Origin: a virus
Taxonomy: Duplodnaviria; Caudoviricetes
Length of the DNA: 64,000 nucleotides
Virus record (IMG/VR): IMGVR_UViG_3300032030_004230
Reading direction: 5' to 3' (one strand)
Shown here in pieces: positions 14,348 through 53,813 of this stretch. The first letter of the stretch is position 1, and every line of letters begins with the position of its first letter. A program made the translations under genes and the position numbers. The notes beneath the pieces were generated by a model. The model was not told the DNA's origin. It was given only the letters and a program-made list of their open reading frames with translations, and ran no database searches.

Positions 14348-14902
14348 ATGGAAGTTTCTAAAGATATTCAAGCAATTTTCTCACAAAGTCCAATGAACTT
14401 TTTAGGCTGGTGTGCAGAAAATCTAAAGCACGGATTCTTAGATATGATGGGACTTCAGTATTTTTCAGCTACGCCTAGATGGAGAATGCTTTGGAGACTT
14501 TCTAAGGGCACAAGTTTCGCTGACAAAAAAATCGGAATTGTCTATGATTTTGTAGAATTCCAAAGAGCATACTTTAATTTCAATAACATAGAGAATCGTA
14601 CATTCTTCTTTATAGACAATACAAAAAATGTTTCACATGCTTTTTCAGTTTTTGCATTAGACATAGACGGCAAAAAGACTTGGTACTGGTTTGAAAATGA
14701 ATGGCTAGTCTTTACTGGAATACGAAAAATTAAGACTGCAAAAAGTCCGCTAGACCTAGTGAAGCTCCAACTACAAGCATTCAAAAGTTTTTATGATGCA
14801 AAAGACATTCATTGCTGGGAGTACTTCGAGCCAAAAGAAGACTCAGTAGATTTTTCTCTATTCTACAAAAACATTACAGAAAATGGAGTTTCTCTCTTCT
14901 AG
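14348..14902 (+). CDS. Transglutaminase-like fold protein, catalytic Cys apparently absent
   Basis: KIGIVYDFVEF..SHAF..WYWFE resembles the G-x-C-x-D..H..WFE pattern with Cys replaced by Val. Confidence 0.45.
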   Translation: MEVSKDIQAIFSQSPMNFLGWCAENLKHGFLDMMGLQYFSATPRWRMLWRLSKGTSFADKKIGIVYDFVEFQRAYFNFNNIENRTFFFIDNTKNVSHAFSVFALDIDGKKTWYWFENEWLVFTGIRKIKTAKSPLDLVKLQLQAFKSFYDAKDIHCWEYFEPKEDSVDFSLFYKNITENGVSLF

Positions 14903-22774: not shown

Positions 22775-22794
22775 CCATTAATAGTTGACGAATT
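22775..22794 (+). repeat. Dispersed intergenic repeat, copy 1 (CCATTAATAGTTGACGAATT)
   Basis: 20 of the 22 core bases contiguous; preceded by TTAA-rich tract, followed by TGTTACCTATGGTTAACA. Confidence 0.9.
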
Positions 22795-27439: not shown

Positions 27440-27461
27440 CCATTAATAGTTGACGAATTCG
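27440..27461 (+). repeat. Dispersed intergenic repeat, copy 2
   Basis: CCATTAATAGTTGACGAATTCG exact; TTAA-rich tract upstream. Confidence 0.9.
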
Positions 27462-28886: not shown

Positions 28887-28908
28887 CCATTAATAGTTGA
28901 CGAATTCG
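28887..28908 (+). repeat. Dispersed intergenic repeat, copy 3
   Basis: Exact 22-mer, followed by TGTTACCTATGGTTAACA. Confidence 0.9.
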
Positions 28909-28960: not shown

Positions 28961-29719
28961 ATGATTCAAATATTCTCAGTTTCAGTTCTAGACAATGGAT
29001 TTTTTGATTTTGAGAAAAATGAGCCCACAGGTGAATTAGAGAAATTTTGCTTCAATTCATGGAAGTCTTTAATAAAAGCTTATCCAAAGTATTTCAATCA
29101 AGAAATAAAAGTATTTGGTCCATGTGACAAAGAATATGAATACATGAAGAAATTTAAGAGCATTTTTAGCACTACTAGAACTGAAGTGCTTGCAGACATT
29201 TATAGATTTTATCTACTGTCATTGTATGATGATATGCTTTATCTTGATTTTGACATTTTAGTGACAAATCCTGAAAAAGCATTGCAAAGCATTCTCAAGA
29301 ATAATATTCTTTTCTATAGAAAAGGTGAAATAAGCATCTTGCAAAGAAAGACTGGATCTAGCAATGTGTTCTTTTCAGAAGTCTTAAAGCATTACGAAGA
29401 CTCTCTTTCAAGCAATCGAGATATTGAAGCTGACTGCGAGACATTATCAAAAGTACATGGCAACTATATAGATGATTGCAACTTCGAGACTTGTGCTAAT
29501 TTAGGATTTTTTCATTTGTCTCTATTCCAGAGTGAGAAAGAAAAATTCATAAAATGCATAAATAAAAAGAAGATTTTCCTTTCTATCTCTAGATCAAGAG
29601 TGAAACAATCTACTTTGTCACTTGATTTTTTGTCTTTAGTGAATGCTACTTACAGCTCGTTAGAGAACTTTTTGGAGCAAACAAATATACAAAACATTAA
29701 AATTATAGAGAGCAGTTAA
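28961..29719 (+). CDS. DXD glycosyltransferase-like protein (GT32/OCH1-like)
   Basis: CFNSWK..ADIYRFYLL....LYLDFDI matches the D-x-x-R..YxDxD pattern. Confidence 0.6.
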   Translation: MIQIFSVSVLDNGFFDFEKNEPTGELEKFCFNSWKSLIKAYPKYFNQEIKVFGPCDKEYEYMKKFKSIFSTTRTEVLADIYRFYLLSLYDDMLYLDFDILVTNPEKALQSILKNNILFYRKGEISILQRKTGSSNVFFSEVLKHYEDSLSSNRDIEADCETLSKVHGNYIDDCNFETCANLGFFHLSLFQSEKEKFIKCINKKKIFLSISRSRVKQSTLSLDFLSLVNATYSSLENFLEQTNIQNIKIIESS

Positions 29720-29729
29720 TATTCATTTT

Positions 29730-30692
29730 ATGGAACCAATTTTTGTAGTTACTTATAAGAATCGATCAGGAAACATCATTCAGAAACTTCTGGATAAGAC
29801 TTATGAAGTAGATCCCAATCGTAAAGTTTTCTTTGTTTGCTATGATTTTGACTTTACAGAGTCTGGATATGACAAATACAATCTTCCTGATAATATGACT
29901 TTTCTCAAGATTGACTTTCAGAAAGACTTTGTTGAAAAGGGCTATGAACGATGTATTCAAGCAAAGAGACATTGGCTTGTAGAAAAAGCTCAATCTATGG
30001 GCTATCATTATTGCTGGATGCTTGATGACGATTTACTTTCTATCTGGAAAATTGCATCTTATAAAGATCAGACACCAGGTGCTAAATGTAATGTAAAAGC
30101 TCAATGTTCTTTTGAGGAAGCTCTTCAGTATATGGAAAAAGAGATGATTGGGAAGAAATTCTCAGTTGCATGCTTCCCTTATAACAAGGGCTCAATGGAC
30201 TTCACTTGGTCTAGCAAAGCATATCTCAAAGAAGATGTGTTTCCGATTGACGGTGTATTCTTGAACATTGACGCTTTCAAAGAAACAGGCTTGAATTACA
30301 CACCACTGAGAAATCATGCAGAAGACTTGATGATTACAGCTGATTCAGTTCGTAAGGGCTTGCATACTTATGCACTTGTCGGATCGTATTGTTTTCATTT
30401 TGACCCGCCTGGAAAATCTGGCTCGATTACAAATAACTATAAAGTGCTTTCTTACAATGTCTGGAAAGAGTATGGTCGTCTTTTTAGATACATTGACAAA
30501 GAGAGCAAAGCTGGAAAAGACAAAGTTCACTATATCAATGTTCAGCTTGACAGGAAGCGTCTTGCAGAGAACACTTTCAGAATTGAAGACGAAGCTCAAA
30601 TTGAGATGGAGAAAGCAAAAGATGCAGATGAGTGGACTCAGATTGTTAGTGACTTAACTAAAAAGCTTGAACTTAAAAAGAAGGGCTTGTAA
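29730..30692 (+). CDS. GT-A glycosyltransferase, resembling phage DNA glycosyltransferases (TET-associated / T-even second-sugar type)
   Basis: IFVVTYKNR, KRHW, WMLDDD, AED motifs. Confidence 0.7.
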   Translation: MEPIFVVTYKNRSGNIIQKLLDKTYEVDPNRKVFFVCYDFDFTESGYDKYNLPDNMTFLKIDFQKDFVEKGYERCIQAKRHWLVEKAQSMGYHYCWMLDDDLLSIWKIASYKDQTPGAKCNVKAQCSFEEALQYMEKEMIGKKFSVACFPYNKGSMDFTWSSKAYLKEDVFPIDGVFLNIDAFKETGLNYTPLRNHAEDLMITADSVRKGLHTYALVGSYCFHFDPPGKSGSITNNYKVLSYNVWKEYGRLFRYIDKESKAGKDKVHYINVQLDRKRLAENTFRIEDEAQIEMEKAKDADEWTQIVSDLTKKLELKKKGL

Positions 30693-36160: not shown

Positions 36161-37495
36161 ATGCAGGAAAATGCAATAAAAGAAGCTAAAGAGCTTGCTG
36201 ACTTGATGTCTCTTAAGGAAGTTAATCCTCTTGCTACTGTTACTGGTGCTATTGCAGGTGCAGCTGCAGGCCTTGCTGGTAGAGCTAAGCAAGCTATTTC
36301 AAATGGAGTGTCTTCAAGTCTTGCAAAAACAGCAAATGCTTTCAATAAAGCAAAAGATGCAGTTGGTGCAGACAAATCGAATAGTTTGTCACAGCTTACC
36401 GTAAATGAAAATGCTCTTGTAATTGCAATCGAAAAGGCTACAAAAAAGTCAAACAACAAAGGTGAAAACACTAATGCTAATGAGGGACAGACTTCTGAAG
36501 CAACAGCAGATGAGGGAGACCTTTCTTTTGACGGTGGTGAAGCTCTTAAAGAGTCTATGGCTCTTAGAGAGGCAGACCACAGAAAAGCAATTGCAATCAT
36601 ACAAAAACTTGAGCAATCAGAGAAAGCTATTACAGTAGAAGATGTAGTAAATGCTATTAAAGCAGCAGACAGCAATGTAGACATCTCTAAAATCAGCAAA
36701 TCAACTGTTGAGAATGCTGTAAAAGACATAAACAAGAAAATTGAGAAGAGAACTAAGACTGCTCAAACTCAAGCAACAAACCAAGCAACAGCAGATGACA
36801 AAGCTCAAATGCAGAAAGTTCTTGGATCTTATGCAAATGATCCTTCTTGGCAAGCAATCTATCCAGCTATTAAGAGTCTTTGTGGCCTTAAAGAAATGCT
36901 TGAAATGAGTACTATCCTAAGAGAAGCTTACTCAAGAATGTTTGAAGCTACTGCAAACTGGAAACAATGGGTTCAAGCAGGAAAGCCGATTGATGATATG
37001 CCTGATCAGCTTGTAAGTCAGATGTTCTCAGAACTTAGAGACTGTGATGCACTTGAAGGCAAGCAGGGACAGATGGCACTTAGCAACTGCTTTAAGTCTG
37101 TAATGTCTGGCAATAATGCAAAGCCAGCAGGTGAAAGCACTCAAGCAGCCAGTGCAGCACAACAGCCGACTGGTCAAGCTCAAAGCAATCAGCAAAGTCA
37201 AGCACAGCCACAGTCTCAGTCTCAGCCACAGAAAATTGTAAATCTTTCTGGTGAAGAAGTCGCTGCAGATATGTCTGTTTTCACACCAAAGCATGCTCAG
37301 CAAATTTCTCAGCTCTTGGCTAATTTGTCTCAGTATTTGTCAGACAAAGAAAAAGATGCATTTATCAAGATACTTACATCTAAGGCTGATAATAACGCTA
37401 ATGCTAATGCTAATCCTGAGCAAGCAGAACAACCCGCCTCTAGTGAGGCATCAAGTAATCGTGCTGGCGCTACGCTAGACGATCTTACAAGTTGA
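36161..37495 (+). CDS. Ala/Gln-rich hypothetical protein, possible internal head protein
   Basis: Follows the protease gene; IKEA, LKEV, LKES, LREA motifs resemble processing sites. Confidence 0.55.
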   Translation: MQENAIKEAKELADLMSLKEVNPLATVTGAIAGAAAGLAGRAKQAISNGVSSSLAKTANAFNKAKDAVGADKSNSLSQLTVNENALVIAIEKATKKSNNKGENTNANEGQTSEATADEGDLSFDGGEALKESMALREADHRKAIAIIQKLEQSEKAITVEDVVNAIKAADSNVDISKISKSTVENAVKDINKKIEKRTKTAQTQATNQATADDKAQMQKVLGSYANDPSWQAIYPAIKSLCGLKEMLEMSTILREAYSRMFEATANWKQWVQAGKPIDDMPDQLVSQMFSELRDCDALEGKQGQMALSNCFKSVMSGNNAKPAGESTQAASAAQQPTGQAQSNQQSQAQPQSQSQPQKIVNLSGEEVAADMSVFTPKHAQQISQLLANLSQYLSDKEKDAFIKILTSKADNNANANANPEQAEQPASSEASSNRAGATLDDLTS

Positions 37496-37522: not shown

Positions 37523-37542
37523 GGCCAGTCGAAAAACTGGCC
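37523..37542. terminator. Bidirectional terminator
   Basis: GGCCAGT/ACTGGCC stem with A-run before and T-run after, between convergent genes. Confidence 0.8.
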
Positions 37543-37551
37543 ATTTTTTTT

Positions 37552-38685
37552 TTACTGATTATTCAACTTATCGTAAAGCTTAAAAGCTGCATCGATTGTA
37601 TCGTCCATGTCGTAGTACTTGTATTCGCCAAGACGACCTGCGAAATAAACATTTTGCTCATTTTCTGCAAGTTTTTTGTACTCTTCTAGAAGTTTAGCAT
37701 TTTTCTCATTGTTGACTGGATAGTACGGTTCATCCCCAGGCTCAAACTCTTTTGAGTACTCAAAAGAAACTACAGTTTTGTTCTTCTTGAAGCTATCAAG
37801 ATATTTATGAAAATGCTTGTGCTCAATTGAGCGAGTGTATGGCTTGTCATGCGATGTGTAATTATAGACTGCATTTCCCTGCATATCTTGAATGTCAAAA
37901 GTCTTCACATCAAAATGAACAGTTCGCCAATCCAATGCACCAAGTGAGTAGCTAAAATACTCATCAATAGGGCCAGTGTAAATTACTTTGTCAGCAAGTT
38001 TGGCATAATCTTTGTTGTCTAAGAAGTTTTCACCAACAAGAGCTTCAGTATCTGGTCCAAAGAAATTATTGATGAGCTCATCATAGCCAAACTCAGGAAC
38101 ACCCTGAAATCTGTCATTGAAGTAATTGTTGTCATAAGAGAATCTGACAGGCAATCGTTTAATGATGTCAGGCGGAAGTTCTTTACAGTCTCTTCCCCAC
38201 TGTTTTTCAGTGTATTCTTTTACAAGCTTTCTATACACAGTCTTTCCGACAAGATTGATAGCTTGTTCTTCAAGATTCTTTGGATTGTCTACTTTATAAA
38301 GCTCAATTTCTTTCTCAATCCTTTCTTTTGCATCAAAAGGCGTCAATACGCCATTTCCAAAAATTTTTGCAAAAGTGTTCATATTGAATGGAAGATTATA
38401 GACTTCATCGTAGTAAACTGCAATAGGGGAGTTTATGAAAGGCCTCATACAGCAGTTATTGCAAACAATATTCCAAATGTCTTCATTGTCTGTATGAAAG
38501 ATATGAGCACCATACTTGTGGACTGGAATGCCTTCTACAAGTTCTGTATGGCAATTTCCACCAATATGGTCTCTTTTTTCAATCACAAGAACAGACTTTC
38601 CATGCGTGCGTGCTTGATACGCAAAAGCTGCATTAAACAATCCAGCACCGACAAGCAAATAATCGTAATGTTCTTTAAGCGTCAT
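37552..38685 (-). CDS. glf: UDP-galactopyranose mutase
   Basis: VGAGLF, HIGGNC, HKYGAHIFHT, YTEKQWG, EPYYPVN, GRLGEYKYYDMD. Confidence 0.95.
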   Translation of the reverse strand: MTLKEHYDYLLVGAGLFNAAFAYQARTHGKSVLVIEKRDHIGGNCHTELVEGIPVHKYGAHIFHTDNEDIWNIVCNNCCMRPFINSPIAVYYDEVYNLPFNMNTFAKIFGNGVLTPFDAKERIEKEIELYKVDNPKNLEEQAINLVGKTVYRKLVKEYTEKQWGRDCKELPPDIIKRLPVRFSYDNNYFNDRFQGVPEFGYDELINNFFGPDTEALVGENFLDNKDYAKLADKVIYTGPIDEYFSYSLGALDWRTVHFDVKTFDIQDMQGNAVYNYTSHDKPYTRSIEHKHFHKYLDSFKKNKTVVSFEYSKEFEPGDEPYYPVNNEKNAKLLEEYKKLAENEQNVYFAGRLGEYKYYDMDDTIDAAFKLYDKLNNQ

Positions 38686-39792
38686 TTATTTTTCCAAAAG
38701 AGAGAGCAAATCATCTACAAAGAACTTTGAGTCCATGAAGCGAAGATGCTGTCTCATATATGAAATAATCTCTTTCCTGTACTCAGGATCTGATTTTAAT
38801 ATTAACGCTTTATTTCGCACTTCTTTCTTTGAAGAAACTGTCAAGAAATCAGCGTATTTGCCTGCATATTCTGCAATCACATTTCTTCCATATTCTTCAA
38901 TAAAGAATGGAACTGTACCATAGAAAGCTGCTTCCTGAATACGAGCTGTCATAAAGCCCATTTCACAGTATTCTCTTTTTGCAAGAAGACAAGTTGCTAC
39001 AGCTTCACGGTAAGGCTTCTCAATTTCAGATGCAGAAAGTCTTTTGCGGAATTCAATTGTTGGGAACTCATGAACAGGGTCTCCATGTCCAGGCTCAAGC
39101 CAGTTTCCATGAACAATTGTACCGTCTGGAAGATACTTGTAGATACACCAGTCACGTTCGTATCTGTTTCCAATGTAAATCACATCAGCAGTGAACTCTT
39201 CAGGATTAGTGATAATCTCAGGAGCATTCTTCTCAGTCATTTCTGAGAAGTCAAATGGAATCTGAACTTTCTTTGCTGAGACAGAACCATCTTTCCATTT
39301 GTTTCCAAGCTCAATGACATACTTAATTCCAAATTTCTCAACTTCTTCTGAAGTAAGCTTGTAGTCAAGATCAAAAACTACAACAGGAATGCTGCGGGAT
39401 TTGCATTCATTAAGAACTTCTTCCATCTTTTCACGGTCATACTGAAAACCGTCTGGATTGTTTGCTTTTGTAGCAGGATCATTTCTGCCTGGGATAAGCC
39501 AACGCCACTCAAGAAGAACAAAGTCTAGCTTGTCCCAATCCCATTTTACAGCTGCAGCTTTTGTATAAGCTGTTTCTCTTGTTTCTGTTGCAAAAGACTT
39601 GAACAGCTTTGTACCAAGTTTCTCATAGCCTTCTTTATCCTGGTCAAGATAAAGTGCTACATCATAACCGCGCTTCTGCAATTCAGAAATAATGCTCCAA
39701 CTGTAAAAAGCATTTCCATCTGGTGTAGAGACTTCTTTTCCATTGCGGAACTTTTTGTCACCAAGAAAGCCCCAATAAAAATATCCAACCAT
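38686..39792 (-). CDS. GT-B glycosyltransferase resembling T4 DNA beta-glucosyltransferase
   Basis: DVIYIGN, KREY..GFMTARIQE, FIEEY, V.SKKEV...LKSDPEYRKEII parallel T4 BGT segments as I recall them (DVIYGG, KNYNDNFITLRVWE, IDEEF, LKHSDVLRKEML). Confidence 0.65.
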   Translation of the reverse strand: MVGYFYWGFLGDKKFRNGKEVSTPDGNAFYSWSIISELQKRGYDVALYLDQDKEGYEKLGTKLFKSFATETRETAYTKAAAVKWDWDKLDFVLLEWRWLIPGRNDPATKANNPDGFQYDREKMEEVLNECKSRSIPVVVFDLDYKLTSEEVEKFGIKYVIELGNKWKDGSVSAKKVQIPFDFSEMTEKNAPEIITNPEEFTADVIYIGNRYERDWCIYKYLPDGTIVHGNWLEPGHGDPVHEFPTIEFRKRLSASEIEKPYREAVATCLLAKREYCEMGFMTARIQEAAFYGTVPFFIEEYGRNVIAEYAGKYADFLTVSSKKEVRNKALILKSDPEYRKEIISYMRQHLRFMDSKFFVDDLLSLLEK

Positions 39793-39796
39793 ATTT

Positions 39797-40306
39797 CTAT
39801 TTCAACTCCTCAATCAGATTTTTGATTTTTTCAACTGTCTCATCAATTGTGTGATATGTGCATTCAAATTTGTAAGGAATGTTACTTTCATTAAAATACT
39901 GTCTCATAAGCTCGTTGCAAGCAGTCTGGTCTTTCCCATGTTCTCGATTGCTACGCTCAAGATCGCAAGGTGCGACTCTTACAAGAACTGTATCTTTGAG
40001 GTCAGACAAGACTTTATCGATTTTTTTGAAGTTTTTGAAAGAAGTGCTTGGGTCGTAATTGCGATAAAGCTGACCATAAATTGTATTTGACAAATGAAAA
40101 CGATCAAAAATCACTCCATTCTCTGGATAGAGCTTGTAAAGCGAAAGCATTGCAAGCATTGTAGACGTTTCACCCTCATCTGTCATTTCAGAGTACTTTT
40201 TTCCTTCTTCTGAATGCTTATAAATCTTAAATCCAGTTTCTTTTGCAAGTTTTTCGCATAGAGTAGTCTTGCCAACTCTGTCAATTGAATCTACTATGAT
40301 AATCAT
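39797..40306 (-). CDS. Deoxynucleoside monophosphate (thymidylate-like) kinase
   Basis: IIVDSIDRVGKTT P-loop and IFDRFHLS..YG. Confidence 0.8.
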   Translation of the reverse strand: MIIIVDSIDRVGKTTLCEKLAKETGFKIYKHSEEGKKYSEMTDEGETSTMLAMLSLYKLYPENGVIFDRFHLSNTIYGQLYRNYDPSTSFKNFKKIDKVLSDLKDTVLVRVAPCDLERSNREHGKDQTACNELMRQYFNESNIPYKFECTYHTIDETVEKIKNLIEELK

Positions 40307-40398
40307 TGTATAAGAATATTAACAGACATTAATTAATTAAATAAAAAAAAATTAGCAACCAGCTGCTTCTCCCTCCCTCTTATATACACTGATCGTCC

Positions 40399-40420
40399 CC
40401 ATTAATAGTTGACGAATTCG
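40399..40420 (+). repeat. Dispersed intergenic repeat, copy 4
   Basis: Exact 22-mer. Confidence 0.9.
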
Positions 40421-40491
40421 TTACTATACATAGAAACATAAAAATAAAAAATCTTGCAAGTAGCCAATCCTTTCTAATATAGCGCTCGTGG

Positions 40492-40513
40492 CCATTAATA
40501 GTTGACGAATTCG
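40492..40513 (+). repeat. Dispersed intergenic repeat, copy 5
   Basis: Exact 22-mer, 71 nt after copy 4. Confidence 0.9.
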
Positions 40514-40548: not shown

Positions 40549-42525
40549 ATGGCATTCAAACTAAAACAGATATCAGAGAATACAAAGCCAAAAGATTTTG
40601 TAGCTCAAGAAGATATGATTGACTTCGTCATAAAAGACAGCTACACAGGTCAGGGTGATTATTATCTTTTCATTCTTGACAAAAAGCCTTCAATTGCACA
40701 GCAAGCTTCTATTATTAAGACAATTGAGCAATGCACTCACAATTATATGCTTGTTACTGCTGTTACTTGTCTTTTCAATAAAGCTACTCTCAAAGGCCAG
40801 GGCATTACAGAATTTTTTCAAACACATCGATCACCTTGGAGAAAGCTCGTAGACAAAAATGGTCAGCATGCAAAAGCAATTATGACATTTGGTGGTGCTC
40901 TATATTCTGCAAATGGAAGTGCAGATATTATGGTAGACGATTTTATGGCAGACCAGTTTGTCTATCCGTACTATTATCTTGGTCATGAAGTCTGGAAATG
41001 TGATACGCATATCTTCCCTGTACATGAAGTAGATGAGCTCTATCCTCGTCTCAAAGACCCTACAATGTCTAATGTTAATTACAAGACAAGATTCTTCTAT
41101 GCACAGCTTGACAGAATGACAAATGGCTCTAAATTGTGGACGCCAATGCTTGATGATGTTGAATGCATTGAAGTAAGCACAAAAGAAGACGCTAAGAAAG
41201 TTCTTAAAGAGAATATGGGTGCAAAGTTGCTTGCATTCGATACCGAGACAAATTCTTTGCAATTCCATCATGGAAAATTGCATTGTATTCAGCTTTGCTG
41301 GGACGGAATTCATAGCTATTTCTTCTTATGGGACCTTTTCAGAAATGATAAAGAAATGATCTCTTCTTTGTATGAGAATTTCACTTCTTGTGAAAGAATC
41401 ACAGGTACTAATGAAAAATTCGATATGGAATGGCTTTGGTATAATGGAGTCCCACTGTTTAGAATAACTGATGCTAGTGATATGATTTGTCATTGTTTGC
41501 ACTCAGACAGATCTAAAGGCTTGAAGCCGTCTTCATATTTCTTTACTCATTTTGGCGGATACGACCTTAAACTCGATAAATGGAAAAAAGAAACAAAATC
41601 ACACAACTATACAAAAGTTCCACCTGAAACCCTTAAGGAGTACGCTTGCAAAGATTCAGCGGCTTCTTGGCGTGTAACTCTTGAAGTAGAAGCTCTTATT
41701 GATGAAGTTGACAAAAGACTTCCAAATGAGAAGCCTCTTGCATGGACTTTAAGAAGATGGTATGAAATGATGATGATGCCAATTTATTCTGAGATTGCTC
41801 AGGTAGAATATAGAGGCATTTATATCAACATGGACCTCATTACAAAACATCGAAATCAGATGCTTGAAGATATTAAAGCTAAGTCGGAAGAACTTTGTAA
41901 AATCTGGAATCTTCCGCCGAACTTTAATTTTGGCTCTGCACCAGAAGTTGCGAGATTGTTTGAGCGTCTTGGATTCACAGATTATGGACGGAACAAGCAG
42001 GGCCTTTACCTTACTGGTGATGATGCAATTCAGCAGTGGATTCGTGAAGGACACACAGAGCTCAAAATTTTCAAAGAATTGAAAAATGAGAAGACTTGTG
42101 CTGGCGGATTCTTAGGGGATTTGGAAAAGAAAACGGGCTGGATTCCTTATGAAGCATATCATGAAGAAGACAATTCTTGGCGTATTCATCAGTCTTACAA
42201 AGTGTTCGGCACAACTTCCTATCGATTCATTGGAAAAGACCCGAACTTTCAAAACATTCCTACTCGTGGAAATTATGCTCCACTTGTAAAGAAATGTATC
42301 GATACGCCAACTGACAACTTGAACATAATCATTTCTGAGTCTGGTAAAGAGTATCATCTTGCAGATTTTGAACTGATTAAAGTAGTTGGTAAAGGCTACA
42401 TAAGAGCTGATGAGATTACTGAGGACGATACAGTTGACGAAAGTGATGAAGCAACTACAGTGAAAAGATGCTCTCTTACAAAAAATGGAGACTCCTGGGA
42501 AAAGCCTGACCCAATTTTCTTCTAA
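40549..42525 (+). CDS. polA: Family A DNA polymerase, N-terminal part (possible UDG-like domain, 3'-5' exonuclease, thumb); lacks motifs A/B/C
   Basis: Exo I AFDTET, Exo II NEKFD, Exo III YACKD, VEYRGIYI, GTTSYRF..DPNFQNIP; ends ~80 aa later with no DYSQxExR-like motif. Confidence 0.85.
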   Translation: MAFKLKQISENTKPKDFVAQEDMIDFVIKDSYTGQGDYYLFILDKKPSIAQQASIIKTIEQCTHNYMLVTAVTCLFNKATLKGQGITEFFQTHRSPWRKLVDKNGQHAKAIMTFGGALYSANGSADIMVDDFMADQFVYPYYYLGHEVWKCDTHIFPVHEVDELYPRLKDPTMSNVNYKTRFFYAQLDRMTNGSKLWTPMLDDVECIEVSTKEDAKKVLKENMGAKLLAFDTETNSLQFHHGKLHCIQLCWDGIHSYFFLWDLFRNDKEMISSLYENFTSCERITGTNEKFDMEWLWYNGVPLFRITDASDMICHCLHSDRSKGLKPSSYFFTHFGGYDLKLDKWKKETKSHNYTKVPPETLKEYACKDSAASWRVTLEVEALIDEVDKRLPNEKPLAWTLRRWYEMMMMPIYSEIAQVEYRGIYINMDLITKHRNQMLEDIKAKSEELCKIWNLPPNFNFGSAPEVARLFERLGFTDYGRNKQGLYLTGDDAIQQWIREGHTELKIFKELKNEKTCAGGFLGDLEKKTGWIPYEAYHEEDNSWRIHQSYKVFGTTSYRFIGKDPNFQNIPTRGNYAPLVKKCIDTPTDNLNIIISESGKEYHLADFELIKVVGKGYIRADEITEDDTVDESDEATTVKRCSLTKNGDSWEKPDPIFF

Positions 42526-42559
42526 TGTTAATTTTTACTTCAAAGGAAATCAGAGAATT

Positions 42560-43774
42560 ATGGAATTTACAATCAGTAATGAGAATTACAAAAAACTAAA
42601 AGAACTTTCAAAAGTTTGTAGCTCTTATAAAGCAGCAGACAATATGTACATTATGAAAGCATTTGAAGACAAGCTCTATGCAATCATTTATGAGAATGGA
42701 ACAATTGTAAAGTTCTCTGTAGATATTGCTAAAGTTGCAGATCCTGGATACTTCTATGTTGATATGAGCAAGTTTCTTCAGGCTATGGAAAATGTTTTCT
42801 TGTCTAGCAAAGAGAATGAAGCAATTATTGTAGTAGACACAAAACTTACAGCAGTTTCTGGAAAGTCGAAGGTCTCATTTCCTCTTCTTGATGATGCACC
42901 TACTGAAGAAGAATGCATTGAAGCTGATGAAGCATTTGACAAGCGAAAAGAGTATCTTTTTTCTGAAGACATTACTGCAGTAAATATTACAGAGACTGTC
43001 ACATCTTTTGCAAATGTAATGAAAAAGTATATCACTATTTTTGAGAACAGTGGTGGAGTTTCTGGAATTGCAGTAGAGCATGATGAGCTTAAGTACACAG
43101 ACCAGTCACTTTCAATTTTTAAAGAGCGACTCCCTGAGAGCATTTCTGATAAGCTTGAGATTATTCCAGTCTCACTTTTTCCTATTCTCACAACTCTTGC
43201 AAAAGTGAAGAACTTTGATCTTGTTTACTCAAATGATGACAAGTTTACAATGATTGAGATGCCTGAGCTCGGCGGATTGAGCATTATCTCAGCACTCCCG
43301 CTTGCTATTTGTGAGTTTCCTACTGAAGAAGAATACGCATACTTAGCACCAGACCCAGAAAATAAAATCACTTTTGATGTAGACAAAGCTGAACTTTATA
43401 CTAAGATCGATGCATTTGATGGAATTTTCTCTTCATCATCTTGGAGATGGAAGTCGGTAGACTTTACAATCAACTCAGATGACAAAGAAACTGTCAATCT
43501 TTCACATGCATCAGCTACTGGTCTTGTAGAAGTTGATCTCAAGATCAAGAATCTTGTCTCTAACACTGATGATGACGCGAAGTTCAAGATTTCAGTTTCT
43601 ATCTTGTATGACTTCTTGAAGAGTTTCTCTGGTGATAGTGAGACAGTTCATTTTGAGTTTACAAACATTGATCCAGACCCTGAAGTAGCAAACTCTTGTG
43701 GTATCGAAGTCGCATCTGGTGATTGCAAATTCTGGCTTGGAAAAGTAGTTCAAGAAGAAAGTCTTTCATTGTAA
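42560..43774 (+). CDS. Sliding clamp (DnaN beta-like)
   Basis: ~400-aa acidic alpha/beta protein with repeated architecture (MEFTIS..., linker EFP, FDVDKAEL), between polymerase and recA. Confidence 0.55.
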   Translation: MEFTISNENYKKLKELSKVCSSYKAADNMYIMKAFEDKLYAIIYENGTIVKFSVDIAKVADPGYFYVDMSKFLQAMENVFLSSKENEAIIVVDTKLTAVSGKSKVSFPLLDDAPTEEECIEADEAFDKRKEYLFSEDITAVNITETVTSFANVMKKYITIFENSGGVSGIAVEHDELKYTDQSLSIFKERLPESISDKLEIIPVSLFPILTTLAKVKNFDLVYSNDDKFTMIEMPELGGLSIISALPLAICEFPTEEEYAYLAPDPENKITFDVDKAELYTKIDAFDGIFSSSSWRWKSVDFTINSDDKETVNLSHASATGLVEVDLKIKNLVSNTDDDAKFKISVSILYDFLKSFSGDSETVHFEFTNIDPDPEVANSCGIEVASGDCKFWLGKVVQEESLSL

Positions 43775-45789: not shown

Positions 45790-46395
45790 TTAAGACCATT
45801 TAGCTCTTTTTCCAAAGAGATTGATGATAGCTGCAATAACTTCTTGAGTAGTCTTTCCTTCTCTCAAATCATCTTTCATATTATTTACAGCTTCGATATA
45901 TCGACTTACAGTCTTGTCATAAACTTGCTTCATGTAATCGCTATTACCAAGAATAAGCTCATGCTTAGTATAAGAAACTACAGAAAGAACATCAGCTAGC
46001 GCAGCAGCTCTTCCTTCTGGAGAGGAACCTTCATTAAACTCGATAAGCCAGTCGGCCATTGTATCTGAAAGCATTTCTCTATTCACAGCTTCTTCAGCCT
46101 GCTCAATAGCAGTTTTCAAAGCAGGCACTCGTTTCTTGATAGGATGCGGCACATCTGAAATGAATACTTCAGAGAAGTCATGCAAAAGAGCCAAAGAAAG
46201 TGCTTTCTGCAAATCAAACTTAAAGTATTCATAAAGCTTTAAGACATATGTTGCTACAAAGAAAGAATGCTCCGCAACAGTTTCTGGATTGTTTACTGGT
46301 GCAATAGAATAGCGTTTGATGTCACGAAGCTTGTCTACATCTTCAAAAAAGCTGCATAAGTCTTCTTTAATCAAAGATTCATATTTATCACTCAT
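45790..46395 (-). CDS. HD-domain 5'-deoxynucleotidase (YfbR-like)
   Basis: IKRY..ETVAEHSF, LLHDFSE..SDVP.PIK, AD. Confidence 0.85.
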   Translation of the reverse strand: MSDKYESLIKEDLCSFFEDVDKLRDIKRYSIAPVNNPETVAEHSFFVATYVLKLYEYFKFDLQKALSLALLHDFSEVFISDVPHPIKKRVPALKTAIEQAEEAVNREMLSDTMADWLIEFNEGSSPEGRAAALADVLSVVSYTKHELILGNSDYMKQVYDKTVSRYIEAVNNMKDDLREGKTTQEVIAAIINLFGKRAKWS

Positions 46396-46870
46396 TAGCT
46401 GCTCCTTCTTCTTTTTCGTCATACGGAATTTGCTGGACAATCAGGCCACACTGTTTCAAAAGCTCTGGGCCTTTAGTATCTCTGTCGTATTCTTCTTCGT
46501 AGATAACTCGTTTAATGCCTGCTGCAACGATAAGTTTAGCACAGTTCGAACAGGGCGCAAGAGTTGTGTACAAAGTAGCTCCAACAGGAGAAACCTCATT
46601 CTTAGCGCACTCAGCAATTGCATTCTGCTCTGCATGAACTTCAAATGCATTGCTAAATTCACCGTGAACTTTCATAAAGTCTGGCTTTTTCATGTCAGAT
46701 GGCTTAAAGTAGTCTACACAATGACGGAGACCAGACGGAACTCCGTTATAGCCAGAAGAAATAATTCGATTGTTCTTGACTACAAGAGCGCCTACTTGCT
46801 TTCTACAACATGTAGAATGCGTAGACATCTCATAAGCAATTCTTAAAAATGACTTGTCCCAATCTTTCAT
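46388..46870 (-). CDS. dCMP deaminase
   Basis: STC..QVGA, GYNG, HAEQNA, PCSNC. Confidence 0.92.
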   Translation of the reverse strand: MKDWDKSFLRIAYEMSTHSTCCRKQVGALVVKNNRIISSGYNGVPSGLRHCVDYFKPSDMKKPDFMKVHGEFSNAFEVHAEQNAIAECAKNEVSPVGATLYTTLAPCSNCAKLIVAAGIKRVIYEEEYDRDTKGPELLKQCGLIVQQIPYDEKEEGAANE

Positions 46871-46902
46871 ATTAGCATATATTCCTTTTGATTGAAATTA
46901 AC

Positions 46903-47745
46903 TTATTGCTTGTCGTGTGAACAAAATGGCACATCACCAAGATGCAAAGAAACACGATTAAGAGCTTCGTTTCTGCAAACATAATTTACAAGGTCATCGT
47001 AGTGTCTCTTGTACAAATGAAGTGAATCAGATGTCCAGACGATTGTGCCAGGCTTCAGTTCTGGATAGGCTTTCTTCAAGTCTTCATACATGTTCTGATA
47101 GACAAAGCAGTTCCATGCAAGGTCTGAACAAATAAGACCAAACCGAATGTCATTACTTCGCATAGTATGAACCATGTAGAGATGATTGCTACGAATAAAG
47201 AAATGACTGTACATTGTACAAATCATGTCATGCATTCCATCACGTTTGTAGTCTTTGTAAATCTCTGGACGATTGTAAACGATAAGAGCATTGCGAGTAG
47301 TTTTGTCTTTTTTCAAAACTTCAAGACAATTGTCGTACTGTGAACCGTTCTCTTCACTGAATACGCACCAACCGTAATTGCTATTGATTTGCTTCTTGTC
47401 ATCTTTTGTGCAGCAAGACTGCCAAGTAGGATTGTTTTCAATGCCTTCATGACCAATAATTGAAAGGTCCATCGATTTGTACCAATCCAATTCTGCTTTG
47501 ACGTACTTTTTTGGCGTCTGAAAGTTTTTGTCAAGATAGATGTACGGTGCATACGGGTCAAACTGCATTTTGTAAGCAAGAAGCTCTACATAAGAATTCT
47601 GGCCATCTGTCTGACTAGCATTTGCACCTGTCTCAACAAGTTCATTCATCACCAAACGATTGTAAAGTTTAAGAAGTGCCTGCTTAATCACTTCATCATT
47701 CGATCTAGAGAGCTCAACAGGCTCTTCTACTGTAAATGTTCTCAT
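46903..47745 (-). CDS. dCMP hydroxymethylase (T4 gp42-like)
   Basis: ELDWYKS, INSNYGW, QYDNC, RP..DY.RDGM.D..CT, MRSND..FG...DLAW, SLHLY.RH closely follow T4 gp42; Asp at the dCMP-specificity position. Confidence 0.85.
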   Translation of the reverse strand: MRTFTVEEPVELSRSNDEVIKQALLKLYNRLVMNELVETGANASQTDGQNSYVELLAYKMQFDPYAPYIYLDKNFQTPKKYVKAELDWYKSMDLSIIGHEGIENNPTWQSCCTKDDKKQINSNYGWCVFSEENGSQYDNCLEVLKKDKTTRNALIVYNRPEIYKDYKRDGMHDMICTMYSHFFIRSNHLYMVHTMRSNDIRFGLICSDLAWNCFVYQNMYEDLKKAYPELKPGTIVWTSDSLHLYKRHYDDLVNYVCRNEALNRVSLHLGDVPFCSHDKQ

Positions 47746-47754
47746 ATCTAAAAA

Positions 47755-48450
47755 TTAACTCCAGCTTACATTTATCTCTTTCTGCTTTTGAGGCTTTCTA
47801 CCACAGCACTTTGTCTCAGTACAGTAGCCACTTACTTCACATTTAGGAACAAACAAATTGTCACAAATGATTTTCCACTCATCTGAATAATTGGACAAAG
47901 CTTTTTTCAAGTCATTTGAGAGACTCCTAATTTCCCAATAAGCACGAGAACAAAGCCTCATGTTCATAAAATGAACAAGTGTTCGAAGATTCACTCTCCA
48001 GACCATTTTTGTTTGATATGCCAGAGGAAGAAGATTTGTCACATCTTCATTTGGAACACCTAATGCTTTAAGCGCTTTCATTCCTCTTTTGATTGCTTCA
48101 ATTGTCTCGTCCCAAGCTTCTTTTGCAAGCTCATTATTTGCTATAGAGGGAGGCGTTACAACTGGTACGCCCTTTTTCTCATAATCAATATAACGGGTAG
48201 AAGCTTGCAATCTCGTAGGCGCTCCTCCGATGTGTGTGTACAATTCGCGAATACACTTCGCTGAATAGCCGTCAAGCACTACATAGACTTCAGGAAATTC
48301 TTCTACTCTTTCATGTCCTGACACAATGCAGTCCAAAGCTCTCTTGATGTTTTTCTCAGAGTCTTTTGTGTTAGCGCCCCAACAAATTCCTGCAAACTCA
48401 CCAATCATTTGAAGCGGAGTTTTTGTTGTATAGTCTTTAATCTCAATCAT
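47755..48450 (-). CDS. thyX: Flavin-dependent thymidylate synthase
   Basis: GH..V.E, H..Q.STRY, EDV..LLP, NLR.L.HF..R..AYWEIR. Confidence 0.85.
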   Translation of the reverse strand: MIEIKDYTTKTPLQMIGEFAGICWGANTKDSEKNIKRALDCIVSGHERVEEFPEVYVVLDGYSAKCIRELYTHIGGAPTRLQASTRYIDYEKKGVPVVTPPSIANNELAKEAWDETIEAIKRGMKALKALGVPNEDVTNLLPLAYQTKMVWRVNLRTLVHFMNMRLCSRAYWEIRSLSNDLKKALSNYSDEWKIICDNLFVPKCEVSGYCTETKCCGRKPQKQKEINVSWS

Positions 48451-48465
48451 AATTAAAAAATTAAC

Positions 48466-49020
48466 TTACTTGTACCTCCAGACATTTTTGACTTTACATG
48501 TCTCAATTTTCATCATATCAAGATTTTTGAATTGAAAATTCTTTGAATTGAGAATGTCAAATATATGATCACCAGTCTCCTCATAGAGTTCTCGTACAAG
48601 TCGTCCATAGAAACCATGACCAATGATGACAACATCATCTGGACAGTCTTTTGTAATGTCTATAAGAGCATTGATCCATCGCGTGCACACATCTGACTTA
48701 CACAAGTGAACTTTTGATTTAAAAGTCTCTTCATCAATTTCCCAAAACTTTAGTCCAGACTCTGCAAGCTCACTTACATCAAATTCAGTAAGGTCAGGAA
48801 CAATTGTGTAGTCTTTTTCTGGGAAGAGCTTTTTAGCTGTTTGTTCACATCTTTTAGCTGGCGACACAAACAACTTGAAACTTTTTGGGAGATGGCAGCC
48901 AATTCTTCTTTTCCAATCATCTGCATCAAAATCAATTATGTCTTGACTATCATAGTCTTTTACAATATCACCCGTAACATTTGCAGCTGTTGGTGCGTGT
49001 CGTATGTAGAATATTCTCAT
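48466..49020 (-). CDS. Histidine phosphatase family protein
   Basis: YIRHA, SPAKRC.QTA, L.E, IGHG. Confidence 0.85.
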   Translation of the reverse strand: MRIFYIRHAPTAANVTGDIVKDYDSQDIIDFDADDWKRRIGCHLPKSFKLFVSPAKRCEQTAKKLFPEKDYTIVPDLTEFDVSELAESGLKFWEIDEETFKSKVHLCKSDVCTRWINALIDITKDCPDDVVIIGHGFYGRLVRELYEETGDHIFDILNSKNFQFKNLDMMKIETCKVKNVWRYK

Positions 49021-49025
49021 TATGA

Positions 49026-49276
49026 TTGAACGCTGCCCCAGGCTAAAGACCTGGGACATTTCAAACTGCTTACAACCTAAAAGGCTGATGTCAGTTCGTT
49101 TTCCTGCTTCATAGAACTACGTGGTTCTCCACAGGCATTTGTACTTTCGGTGGGTTCCCCGCCTACTATGTTGCTTCCAAGCTGGCTACTAACTCGCTTG
49201 CATTATTATATTAACATTTTTTTTGGTGTTGCTACATATGCCACACTAAAGATGTGGCATTTTTACGCAACACGCT
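49026..49276 (-). mobile_element. Miniature non-autonomous IS200/IS605-type element with TnpB omega-RNA-like scaffold
   Basis: Two hairpins with identical TCTTTAG loop (49238-49260, 49037-49055); internal GCCTGTGGAG..ATGAAGCAGGAA; ends in TTCAA; TTTAT just outside the left end; no tnpA/tnpB gene. Confidence 0.7.
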
Positions 49277-53791: not shown

Positions 53792-53813
53792 CGAATTCGT
53801 CAACTATTAATGG
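53792..53813 (-). repeat. Dispersed intergenic repeat, copy 6 (inverted)
   Basis: CGAATTCGTCAACTATTAATGG; identity to copy 1 extends through GCGAGTCGTCT; same GTTAAC-type flank. Confidence 0.9.

Follow-up and report, generated by a model that had tools for sequence, protein, structure and literature searches.

A three-gene operon on the minus strand of the virus record IMGVR_UViG_3300032030_004230, a stretch of 64,000 nucleotides from a member of the Caudoviricetes (hereafter the window), encodes a thymidylate kinase (TMK)-like nucleotide kinase, a glycosyltransferase of the GT-B fold related to T4 beta-glucosyltransferase (BGT), and a UDP-galactopyranose mutase (Glf). On balance, we read the operon as supplying the glycosylation step of a T4-like hypermodification of cytosine, which would place a sugar containing galactofuranose (Galf) on 5-hydroxymethylcytosine (5hmC). 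The operon and the identities of its genes are close to certain. The open reading frames (ORFs) lie exactly where an initial annotation, made from the letters of the window, had placed them, separated by 4 nt (kinase/transferase) and 0 nt (transferase/Glf), and diverge, as that annotation also held, from a PolA gene (40549-42525) with which the operon shares a 242-nt spacer. A role in the hypermodification of 5-substituted cytosine is highly likely. Glycosylation of 5hmC is well supported by the gene content, and galactofuranose is a plausible sugar; we infer the acceptor, the donor sugar with its ring form, the transferase using this donor, and the protective role.

In the pathway proposed, the gp42-type enzyme of the window would convert dCMP to 5-hydroxymethyl-dCMP (hm-dCMP), ThyX and dCMP deaminase would maintain the dTMP supply, and the TMK-like kinase, along with the host nucleoside diphosphate kinase, would phosphorylate hm-dCMP toward the triphosphate, to be incorporated into DNA. 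The BGT-like enzyme would glycosylate the hydroxymethyl group, using as donor the UDP-Galf made by Glf from host UDP-galactopyranose. The virion DNA would carry a glycosyl-5hmC containing galactofuranose, possibly extended by two further enzymes of the window, a TET-associated glycosyltransferase (TAGT)-like and a GT8-like protein, and would be shielded from restriction enzymes and CRISPR nucleases.

Many phage homologs of thymidylate synthase (TS), including those of RB69, DLP3 and the Rhizobium phage RL38J1, make 5-hydroxy-dCMP (5hodCMP) and not hm-dCMP, and an Asn at the position of Asp169 in Escherichia coli ThyA has been proposed as diagnostic of 5hodCMP synthases (Lee et al., NAR 2026, PMC13326640). 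In an alignment of the window enzyme, 27 TS homologs linked to transferases of the same family, T4 gp42, RB69 gp48 and RL38J1 gp216, this position is Asp in T4 gp42, in the window enzyme and in all the 27 linked homologs, and Asn in gp48 and gp216, both validated 5hodCMP synthases. T4 gp42, the window enzyme and the linked homologs share an Asp at the equivalent of Asn177, and an Asp, replaced by Glu in one of the homologs, at the equivalent of Leu143. The window enzyme is 38% identical to T4 gp42 (E 5e-41), and its Cys148 and Asp179 align with the T4 protein, in keeping with the dCMP-specificity Asp noticed in the initial annotation; the TS homolog flanking the operon of the closest relatives is 45% identical to gp42. 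Neither of the two had BLASTP similarity to RB69 gp48 or RL38J1 gp216. 5hmC is the supported base because of the gp42-type signature, the identity to gp42 and this lack of similarity to the 5-hydroxycytosine (5hoC) enzymes, and 5hmC rather than 5hoC is very probably the base made. The gp42-like gene is part of a block of five pyrimidine-pool genes, including the separate ThyX already spotted in the initial annotation; Tdk, NUDIX and cytidine deaminase genes are found elsewhere in the window, and the whole set is consistent with a rerouted pyrimidine pool.

The product of the middle gene appears, from its sequence and structural model, to be a UDP-sugar-dependent GT-B enzyme, a distant relative of BGT lying outside the Pfam BGT family. 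Sequence searches found no match in Pfam (E <= 0.01), PHROG or PDB, and tblastn found none in 50,697 GenBank phage records. Homologs form more than 470 metagenomic protein clusters, and the family is confined to uncultured phages. The AlphaFold model, built from an alignment of 39 sequences, has a pLDDT of 94.7 and shows two Rossmann domains in a GT-B arrangement superposable on BGT; the top Foldseek matches are T4 beta-glucosyltransferase and T4 alpha-glucosyltransferase (AGT), with E values from 2e-9 to 1e-8. A comparison by hhalign of the family profile with the single BGT sequence gave a probability of 86%, over the C-terminal domain only. Within this domain the UDP-contacting residues R195, Y261, R269 and E272 of BGT align with R213, Y275, R284 and E287, invariant in the family, and BGT R191 is offset by one from the invariant R210. 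The label of T4-BGT-like transferase given to the protein at the outset is borne out by fold and UDP-binding residues; the comparison with BGT proposed along with it returned BGT as best structural match, with a sequence alignment restricted to the C-terminal domain. In the ESM Atlas the protein sits between clusters of CgeB-type PF13524 proteins and viral PF09198 clusters.

Relatives of the operon were gathered from 26 IMG/VR loci, 80 metagenome loci and several assembly contigs. Neighbours were counted by profile HMM scoring in de-duplicated loci flanked on either side by 2.5 kb or more of sequence, a TS homolog being taken as linked if found within 3.5 kb of the transferase. Three clades of transferases can be distinguished. 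The main clade includes 52 unique transferases; among the 32 loci with full flanks, the kinase is found in 31, the TS homolog in all, Glf in two. The window's clade includes 10 unique transferases, and all its seven fully flanked loci feature kinase and Glf, five of them the TS homolog as well. The distant clade is made up of 23 unique transferases, with the kinase in eight of the 11 fully flanked loci, and neither TS homolog nor Glf in any. Loci of the window's clade are usually ordered TS-kinase-GT-Glf-dCMP deaminase, GT denoting the glycosyltransferase; a conserved association of glf, BGT-like and gp42-like genes, which the initial annotation had suggested to look for, is recurrent, in metagenomic loci only. 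Transferase and TS homolog are also found fused in single proteins, P0062 (613 aa; L001:10001-11842 and L002:4661-6502) and P0121 (655 aa), present on two and four contigs, respectively. The two fusions are collinear and 50% identical, which indicates that the fusion is old and has been maintained. The link between transferase and hydroxymethylase, observed across about 85 unique metagenomic loci, fusions included, is very strong, and genomic context could hardly tie the transferase more firmly to hydroxymethylcytosine metabolism. For the families of transferase and TS homolog, a complex prediction run without controls scored 0.00 and carries no weight.

Further variation was observed around the transferase genes. 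The contigs with the fusion genes are phage sequences of about 45 kb, where MazG and PolIII-alpha genes are neighbours of the fusion. In 39-41 main-clade loci, as monitored by tblastn, a radical-SAM/SPASM gene or, elsewhere, a weakly GT47-like gene is interposed between kinase and BGT-like transferase (examples are L018:9144-9998, L044:4018-4881 and L009:8898-9995), which hints at further tailoring of sugar or base. The main-clade radical-SAM gene gave a single marginal match (E 0.003) to the array of radical-SAM paralogs found in the window. In the distant clade (30-35% identity; L086, L088-L091, L096, L109, L030 and others) the transferase comes after the kinase and directly before a dCMP-deaminase-like gene, with no TS homolog within 3.5 kb of the transferase. 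Contig names of some relatives mention human gut and fermentation metagenomes.

The kinase scores below the Pfam cut-off for Thymidylate_kin (20.9 bits), and matches PHROG 761 (E 2.6e-15) and, in the PDB, YorR (E 8e-5). A family profile of 60 sequences was aligned by hhalign to RB69 gp45 and RL38J1 gp214 with probabilities of 95.2% and 96.3%, and to the T4 gp1-type deoxynucleoside monophosphate kinase with a probability of 14%, over the P-loop only. The protein, labelled initially as dNMP kinase, is a TMK-like nucleotide kinase and not a gp1-type enzyme, and by sequence belongs to a family found beside the first-sugar transferases of cytosine-hypermodifying phages.

Glf scores far above the PF03275 cut-off (247.5 vs. 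26.3 bits; E 1e-73), and matches over its full length the solved UDP-galactopyranose mutases (UGMs) of Campylobacter jejuni (4MO2, E 7e-123) and E. coli (1I8T, E 7e-117). The substrate-binding blocks PVRF, EHKHF, EPYYPVN and GRLGEYKYYDM are kept in alignments with solved UGMs. His and Lys are found in place of Arg59 and Arg168 of C. jejuni UNGM, positions which we take to be relevant to function. Identity of the window Glf is about 55% with bacterial UGMs, and 25-32% with the other Glfs linked to transferases in phages; transferase loci thus captured Glf independently. Its best matches in phage databases are human faecal contigs. A GLF-family gene (PF03275, E 5e-54) is also found in cultured T4-like Aeromonas phages (19 records), in Stenotrophomonas phage IME13 and Erwinia phage FBB1. 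In Aeromonas phage 25 (L116, DQ529280, 7013-10284) two ORFs of about 350 aa come after Glf, next to motA; the two ORFs, which had no Pfam match and no similarity to the BGT-like family, possibly are DNA transferases present in an isolate.

GLF-family genes, verified by Pfam, are neighbours of the transferase in four gene orders: kinase-GT-Glf in the window's clade, kinase-GT-Glf-TS in L040/41, radical SAM-Glf-GT in L008/44, and UDG-Glf-GT in L083/85/108. In a maximum-likelihood tree of 85 unique transferases, adjacency to Glf needs at least three origins, and the window's clade, supported by an SH-aLRT of 100, features Glf in all nine determinable loci. G003, a 98%-complete, 49-kb phage genome, carries the order radical SAM-Glf-GT-TS. 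Six-frame searches of G003 found no GT2, GT1/4, GT8, DUF4422 or TAGT gene, with the limit that divergent transferases can escape profiles: PF13524 missed the BGT-like gene of G003 itself, and the DUF4422 control matched nowhere. As no other transferase was detected there, the BGT-like enzyme is the only recognisable user of UDP-Galf in this genome. The initial annotation had left the choice between galactofuranose and arabinofuranose; the latter is less likely because no arabinose pathway genes were seen in the window. In a distant clade, a gene of the uracil-DNA glycosylase (UDG) superfamily (PF03167, E 2.4e-16) lies directly 5' of the Glf-GT pair (L083:1397-2089; also L108:1702-2391).

Two more glycosyltransferase-like genes reside in the window. 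The TAGT-like protein (36.3 bits, against a PF20691 cut-off of 27.5) is a candidate second DNA glycosyltransferase, as judged from the family match. The other, a near-orphan with one close and 10 remote homologs, has a weak GT8 match in Pfam (E 0.007) and a model of pLDDT 64.5, of which the best Foldseek matches are GT8 enzymes and glycogenin (E 4e-3); on this weak assignment it may be a further glycosyltransferase. PDB sequence searches with the two proteins gave nothing meaningful. G002, a 300-kb relative with Glf, has a double-GT2 protein of 573 aa (C1:49443-50540; L117/L119), located about 190 kb from the kinase-GT-Glf module, which is a possible alternative Galf-transferase.

Several observations weigh against the pathway proposed. 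Most members of the transferase family lack Glf. Only seven clade-specific positions separate Glf-linked from unlinked transferases, and none is convergent across independent Glf-linked clades, so that the transferase provides no usable signature of donor specificity. The N-terminal domain was not aligned to BGT by hhalign, and no equivalent of the catalytic base Asp100 could be placed; position alone makes the invariant FDLDYK motif (D141/D143) a candidate. The protein scores below the PF09198 profile (the GT63 BGT family), and is acidic (pI 5.4; family median 5.5; T4 BGT 9.0), so that a BGT-like DNA-binding surface is not evident. In the window Glf the FAD-binding GxGxxG motif (residues 13-18) reads GAGLFN, Asn replacing the third Gly. 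The same motif is found in L114, a 98%-identical strain from another sample, and in no other GT-linked Glf, all the remaining ones having Gly, or Ala in one case, at this position. The hydroxymethylase gene is not adjacent to the operon, being 7 kb away. A T4 gp56-type dCTPase was not found within the 64-kb window, and full replacement of cytosine is therefore unproven; in the claim that the phage replaces C with 5hmC, synthesis of hm-dCMP by a gp42-type enzyme, and not of 5hodCMP, is the part supported. The TAGT-like and GT8-like proteins could use UDP-Galf in place of the BGT-like enzyme, and the galactofuranosyltransferases known to us are GT-A enzymes.

The last two points also speak for a different assignment of the donor, in which the BGT-like enzyme adds glucose or galactopyranose, and Glf feeds another transferase, be it TAGT-like, GT8-like or encoded outside the window, that places a distal galactofuranose on DNA. 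We regard this arrangement as rather unlikely. The Glf-less majority of the family presumably adds glucose or galactopyranose, Glf-linked clades carry no donor-specificity signature, the window holds a bona fide TAGT-family gene next to a GT-A-like one, RL38J1 uses three transferases to build a trisaccharide, and G002 has its double-GT2 protein far from Glf. Yet Glf always lies directly against the BGT-like gene, in four orders and in three or more independent clades; none of the Glf-bearing relatives G001-G003 has a TAGT gene; profile searches revealed no other glycosyltransferase in G003; and the GT8-like protein, although its model is weak, has no resemblance to known Galf-transferases. That a furanose derived from Glf ends up on DNA, by either enzyme, is somewhat probable; that the BGT-like transferase places it directly on 5hmC is tentative, with chances slightly short of even. 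The first sugar could also be added to the free nucleotide, hm-dCMP being converted to glycosyl-hm-dCMP and then to di- and triphosphate, and the polymerase incorporating a glycosylated, possibly galactofuranosylated, dCTP analogue. To our knowledge every characterised phage DNA glycosylation is post-replicative, and the nearest solved relatives of the transferase, T4 BGT and AGT, act on duplex DNA; we consider the nucleotide-level route doubtful. It would account for the conserved GT-TS fusions, suggestive of consecutive steps, even if enzymes that are not consecutive in a pathway are found fused as well, and for the kinase-GT pairing, the most universal feature of the family, seen also in the distant clade, where no TS homolog is nearby. 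In line with it, the homologous kinases of RB69 and RL38J1 coexist with gp1-type kinases, the transferase is acidic, as is RL38J1 gp215 (pI 5.6), and 5hoC-DNA was not glycosylated by individual transferases in the work of Lee et al., who cannot distinguish addition to the mononucleotide from post-replicative addition (PMC13326640).

Far less probable than these is a target other than DNA, such as host cell-wall polysaccharide, teichoic acid or a virion protein, for Glf with or without the transferase. Glf genes are found in temperate Streptococcus and Lactobacillus phages which lack a hydroxymethylcytosine pathway, the situation would resemble that of glf at the ends of Streptococcus suis prophages, and the acidic transferase also resembles CgeB-type bacterial GT-B enzymes. 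The operon, however, is surrounded by genes of replication and nucleotide metabolism, with which it has a probable promoter element in common, relatives show the TS-kinase-GT-Glf-dCMP deaminase order, and transferase and hydroxymethylase are fused in two lineages. Equally improbable is 5hoC as the modified base, as found in RB69, DLP3 and RL38J1. The kinase is homologous to those of the 5hoC clusters, the kinase-GT-TS trio follows the same logic, and the diagnostic value of Asn at the Asp169 position rests on about a dozen tested enzymes (PMC13326640). Against it are the Asp found there in the window enzyme and in 27 of 27 GT-linked homologs, the identity to T4 gp42 of the window enzyme and of the neighbouring clade-A ones coupled to no BLASTP similarity to gp48 and gp216, and a transferase unrelated in sequence to RL38J1 gp215 and RB69 gp46:47.

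The system of the window combines traits of different known ones. T4 has in common with it the gp42-type hydroxymethylase, with the same active-site signature, and provides in BGT the nearest solved structure, of which UDP-binding Arg, Glu and Tyr residues are kept; in T4, too, b-gt adjoins gene 42. In contrast to T4, the window transferase is acidic and outside PF09198, the kinase is TMK-like and not gp1-like, replication genes are of the PolA, ThyX and RecA types, and Glf is coupled to the transferase, which implies a donor other than UDP-glucose.

RL38J1 (Pootjesviridae) carries Gal-Glc-Glc on 5hoC, and encodes a Glf (gp084) and a kinase/GT/5hodCMP synthase trio (gp214/gp215/gp216); UDP-Galf made by the phage mutase has been proposed as source of the galactose, the ring form being only proposed (PMC13326640). 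Its Glf is 41% identical to the window Glf, its GT-adjacent kinase is homologous to that of the window, the kinase/GT/TS clusters obey the same logic, and both phages have several transferases. The two systems differ in the base (5hoC with Asn at the Asp169 position vs. a 5hmC-type signature), in the first transferases, unrelated in sequence (0.2% by hhalign for gp215), and in the position of Glf, separated from the trio by about 60 kb in RL38J1 and abutting the transferase in the window. The window transferase was also evaluated as a homolog of RL38J1 gp215 or RB69 gp46/gp47, and discarded as such (hhalign 0.1-0.3%): roles are analogous, GT-B lineages different.

RB69 and DLP3 make arabinofuranosyl-5hoC, the RB69 cluster including kinase gp45, arabinosyltransferase gp46:47 and 5hodCMP synthase gp48. 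A homologous TMK/YorR-like kinase adjoins the first transferase in these phages, the best PDB match of DLP3 gp78 also being YorR, and a furanose is set on a C5-oxygenated cytosine, as proposed for the window. The sugar is, by contrast, a pentose, provided by Ara5P-isomerase, phosphatase, kinase and uridylyltransferase and not by a mutase, and the base is 5hoC. In relatives the kinase, GT and TS genes adjoin one another (main clade, 32/32 loci; window's clade, 5/7), the TS homolog of the window itself being 7 kb away.

TAGTs (PF20691) of phages oxidising 5-methylcytosine by TET enzymes glycosylate 5hmC in DNA (Burke et al., PNAS 2021, PMC8256090). A TAGT-family gene is present both in these phages and in the window, where no TET gene was seen and where, from its gene content, the gp42-type enzyme would form 5hmC on the free nucleotide. 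The window TAGT gene is 9 kb from the operon, and missing in the Glf-bearing relatives.

The initial annotation knew of no galactofuranosylated DNA base. This calls for a qualification, phage-Glf UDP-Galf having already been proposed for RL38J1 (PMC13326640). Among the papers searched, that by Lee et al. (PMC13326640) alone links Glf to phage DNA glycosylation. That a phage Glf may supply UDP-Galf for the glycosylation of DNA is an idea already published, and novelty is to this extent pre-empted. New with respect to RL38J1 are the 5hmC base, the BGT-related first transferase, the coupling of Glf to the transferase, and a family residing in uncultured phages. Cytosines bearing sugars rank with the most effective defences of phages against restriction enzymes and several CRISPR nucleases; with every new sugar, novel enzyme tools and novel specificities of type IV restriction have tended to follow. 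We describe here a large uncultured transferase family tied to 5hmC synthesis, which repeatedly recruits a pyranose-furanose mutase. Galactofuranosyl-5hmC, if present, would add to the natural bases of DNA, and no furanosyl hexose would have preceded it on a hydroxymethyl scaffold. A nucleotide-level route, if true, would be the first pre-replicative pathway of DNA glycosylation, and would explain both the second kinase of RB69, DLP3 and RL38J1 and the failed transfer of the first sugar on DNA. Fusions and dedicated kinase make the timing of the first sugar, before or after replication, directly testable, and a cassette of just three to four genes (hydroxymethylase, kinase, transferase, Glf) could, given its size, be reconstituted in E. 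coli with the in vivo assay already published.

Features of the window discussed here. Coordinates are those of the 64,000-nucleotide window.
Feature	Position	Strand	Remarks
GT-A / GT8-like protein, near-orphan	28961-29719	+	weak GT8 match in Pfam
TAGT family protein	29730-30692	+	PF20691, E 7.3e-9
Bidirectional intrinsic terminator	37523-37542	.	8-bp GC-rich stem, T-runs on both strands
UDP-galactopyranose mutase Glf, 377 aa	37552-38685	-	ATG abuts transferase stop codon
BGT-like GT-B glycosyltransferase, 368 aa	38686-39792	-	UDP-sugar dependent; candidate 5hmC glycosyltransferase, from sequence
TMK-like nucleotide kinase, 169 aa	39797-40306	-	first gene of the operon
GTTAAT motif	40318-40323	-	17 nt 5' of the kinase start codon, in the place of a Shine-Dalgarno sequence
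Putative promoter region, two exact 17-mer copies	40399-40508	-	copies at 40399-40415 and 40492-40508
Pyrimidine-pool block	45790-49059	-	gp42-like gene and the four genes identified by Pfam below
HD 5'-deoxynucleotidase-like	45790-46440	-	Pfam
dCMP deaminase	46388-46870	-	Pfam
T4 gp42-type dCMP hydroxymethylase (5hmdCMP synthase)	46903-47745	-	PDB 1B49, E 1.4e-36
ThyX	47755-48450	-	Pfam
Histidine phosphatase	48466-49059	-	Pfam
17-mer, minus-strand copies	22775-22791, 27440-27456, 28887-28903, 40399-40415, 40492-40508	-	
17-mer, plus-strand copy	53797-53813	+	

The 17-mer found in two copies upstream of the operon, TCGTCAACTATTAATGG, is repeated six times in the window, always in intergenic position, vs. 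0.16 exact copies expected. A TATAT(T/A)A box follows each copy at about 15 nt, wherever the sequence was read. By number and location, the 17-mer is probably a phage-specific class of promoter or operator, co-regulating six transcription units. The terminator, 10 nt past the Glf stop codon, closes both the operon and the convergent gene 36161-37495.

The GTTAAT motif, under which the initial annotation had set the operon, is a positional signal and is not enriched in the window as a whole (38 copies vs. 42 expected). Copies at 40 nt or less from a start codon are 15, vs. 0.8 expected. On the sense strand the motif lies 14-17 nt before 10 start codons lacking a GGAG Shine-Dalgarno sequence, among which are those of the kinase, PolA, gp42-like and ThyX genes. 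The extended form GTTAAT(A/T)TT precedes the starts at 14348, 22862, 29730, 31762, 40306(-), 40549, 47745(-), 48450(-), 53879 and 59468, many of the genes involved being in DNA metabolism. GTTAAT could be a -10-like box for near-leaderless mRNAs, or an alternative signal for translation initiation.

The divergent PolA ORF (658 aa) matches the exonuclease and only the first 150 or so positions of the polymerase profile (window 40549-43774). The ORF 42485-43774, which overlaps it, has only a weak PHROG match to a processivity factor, and the DNA polymerase of the window may be split or truncated.

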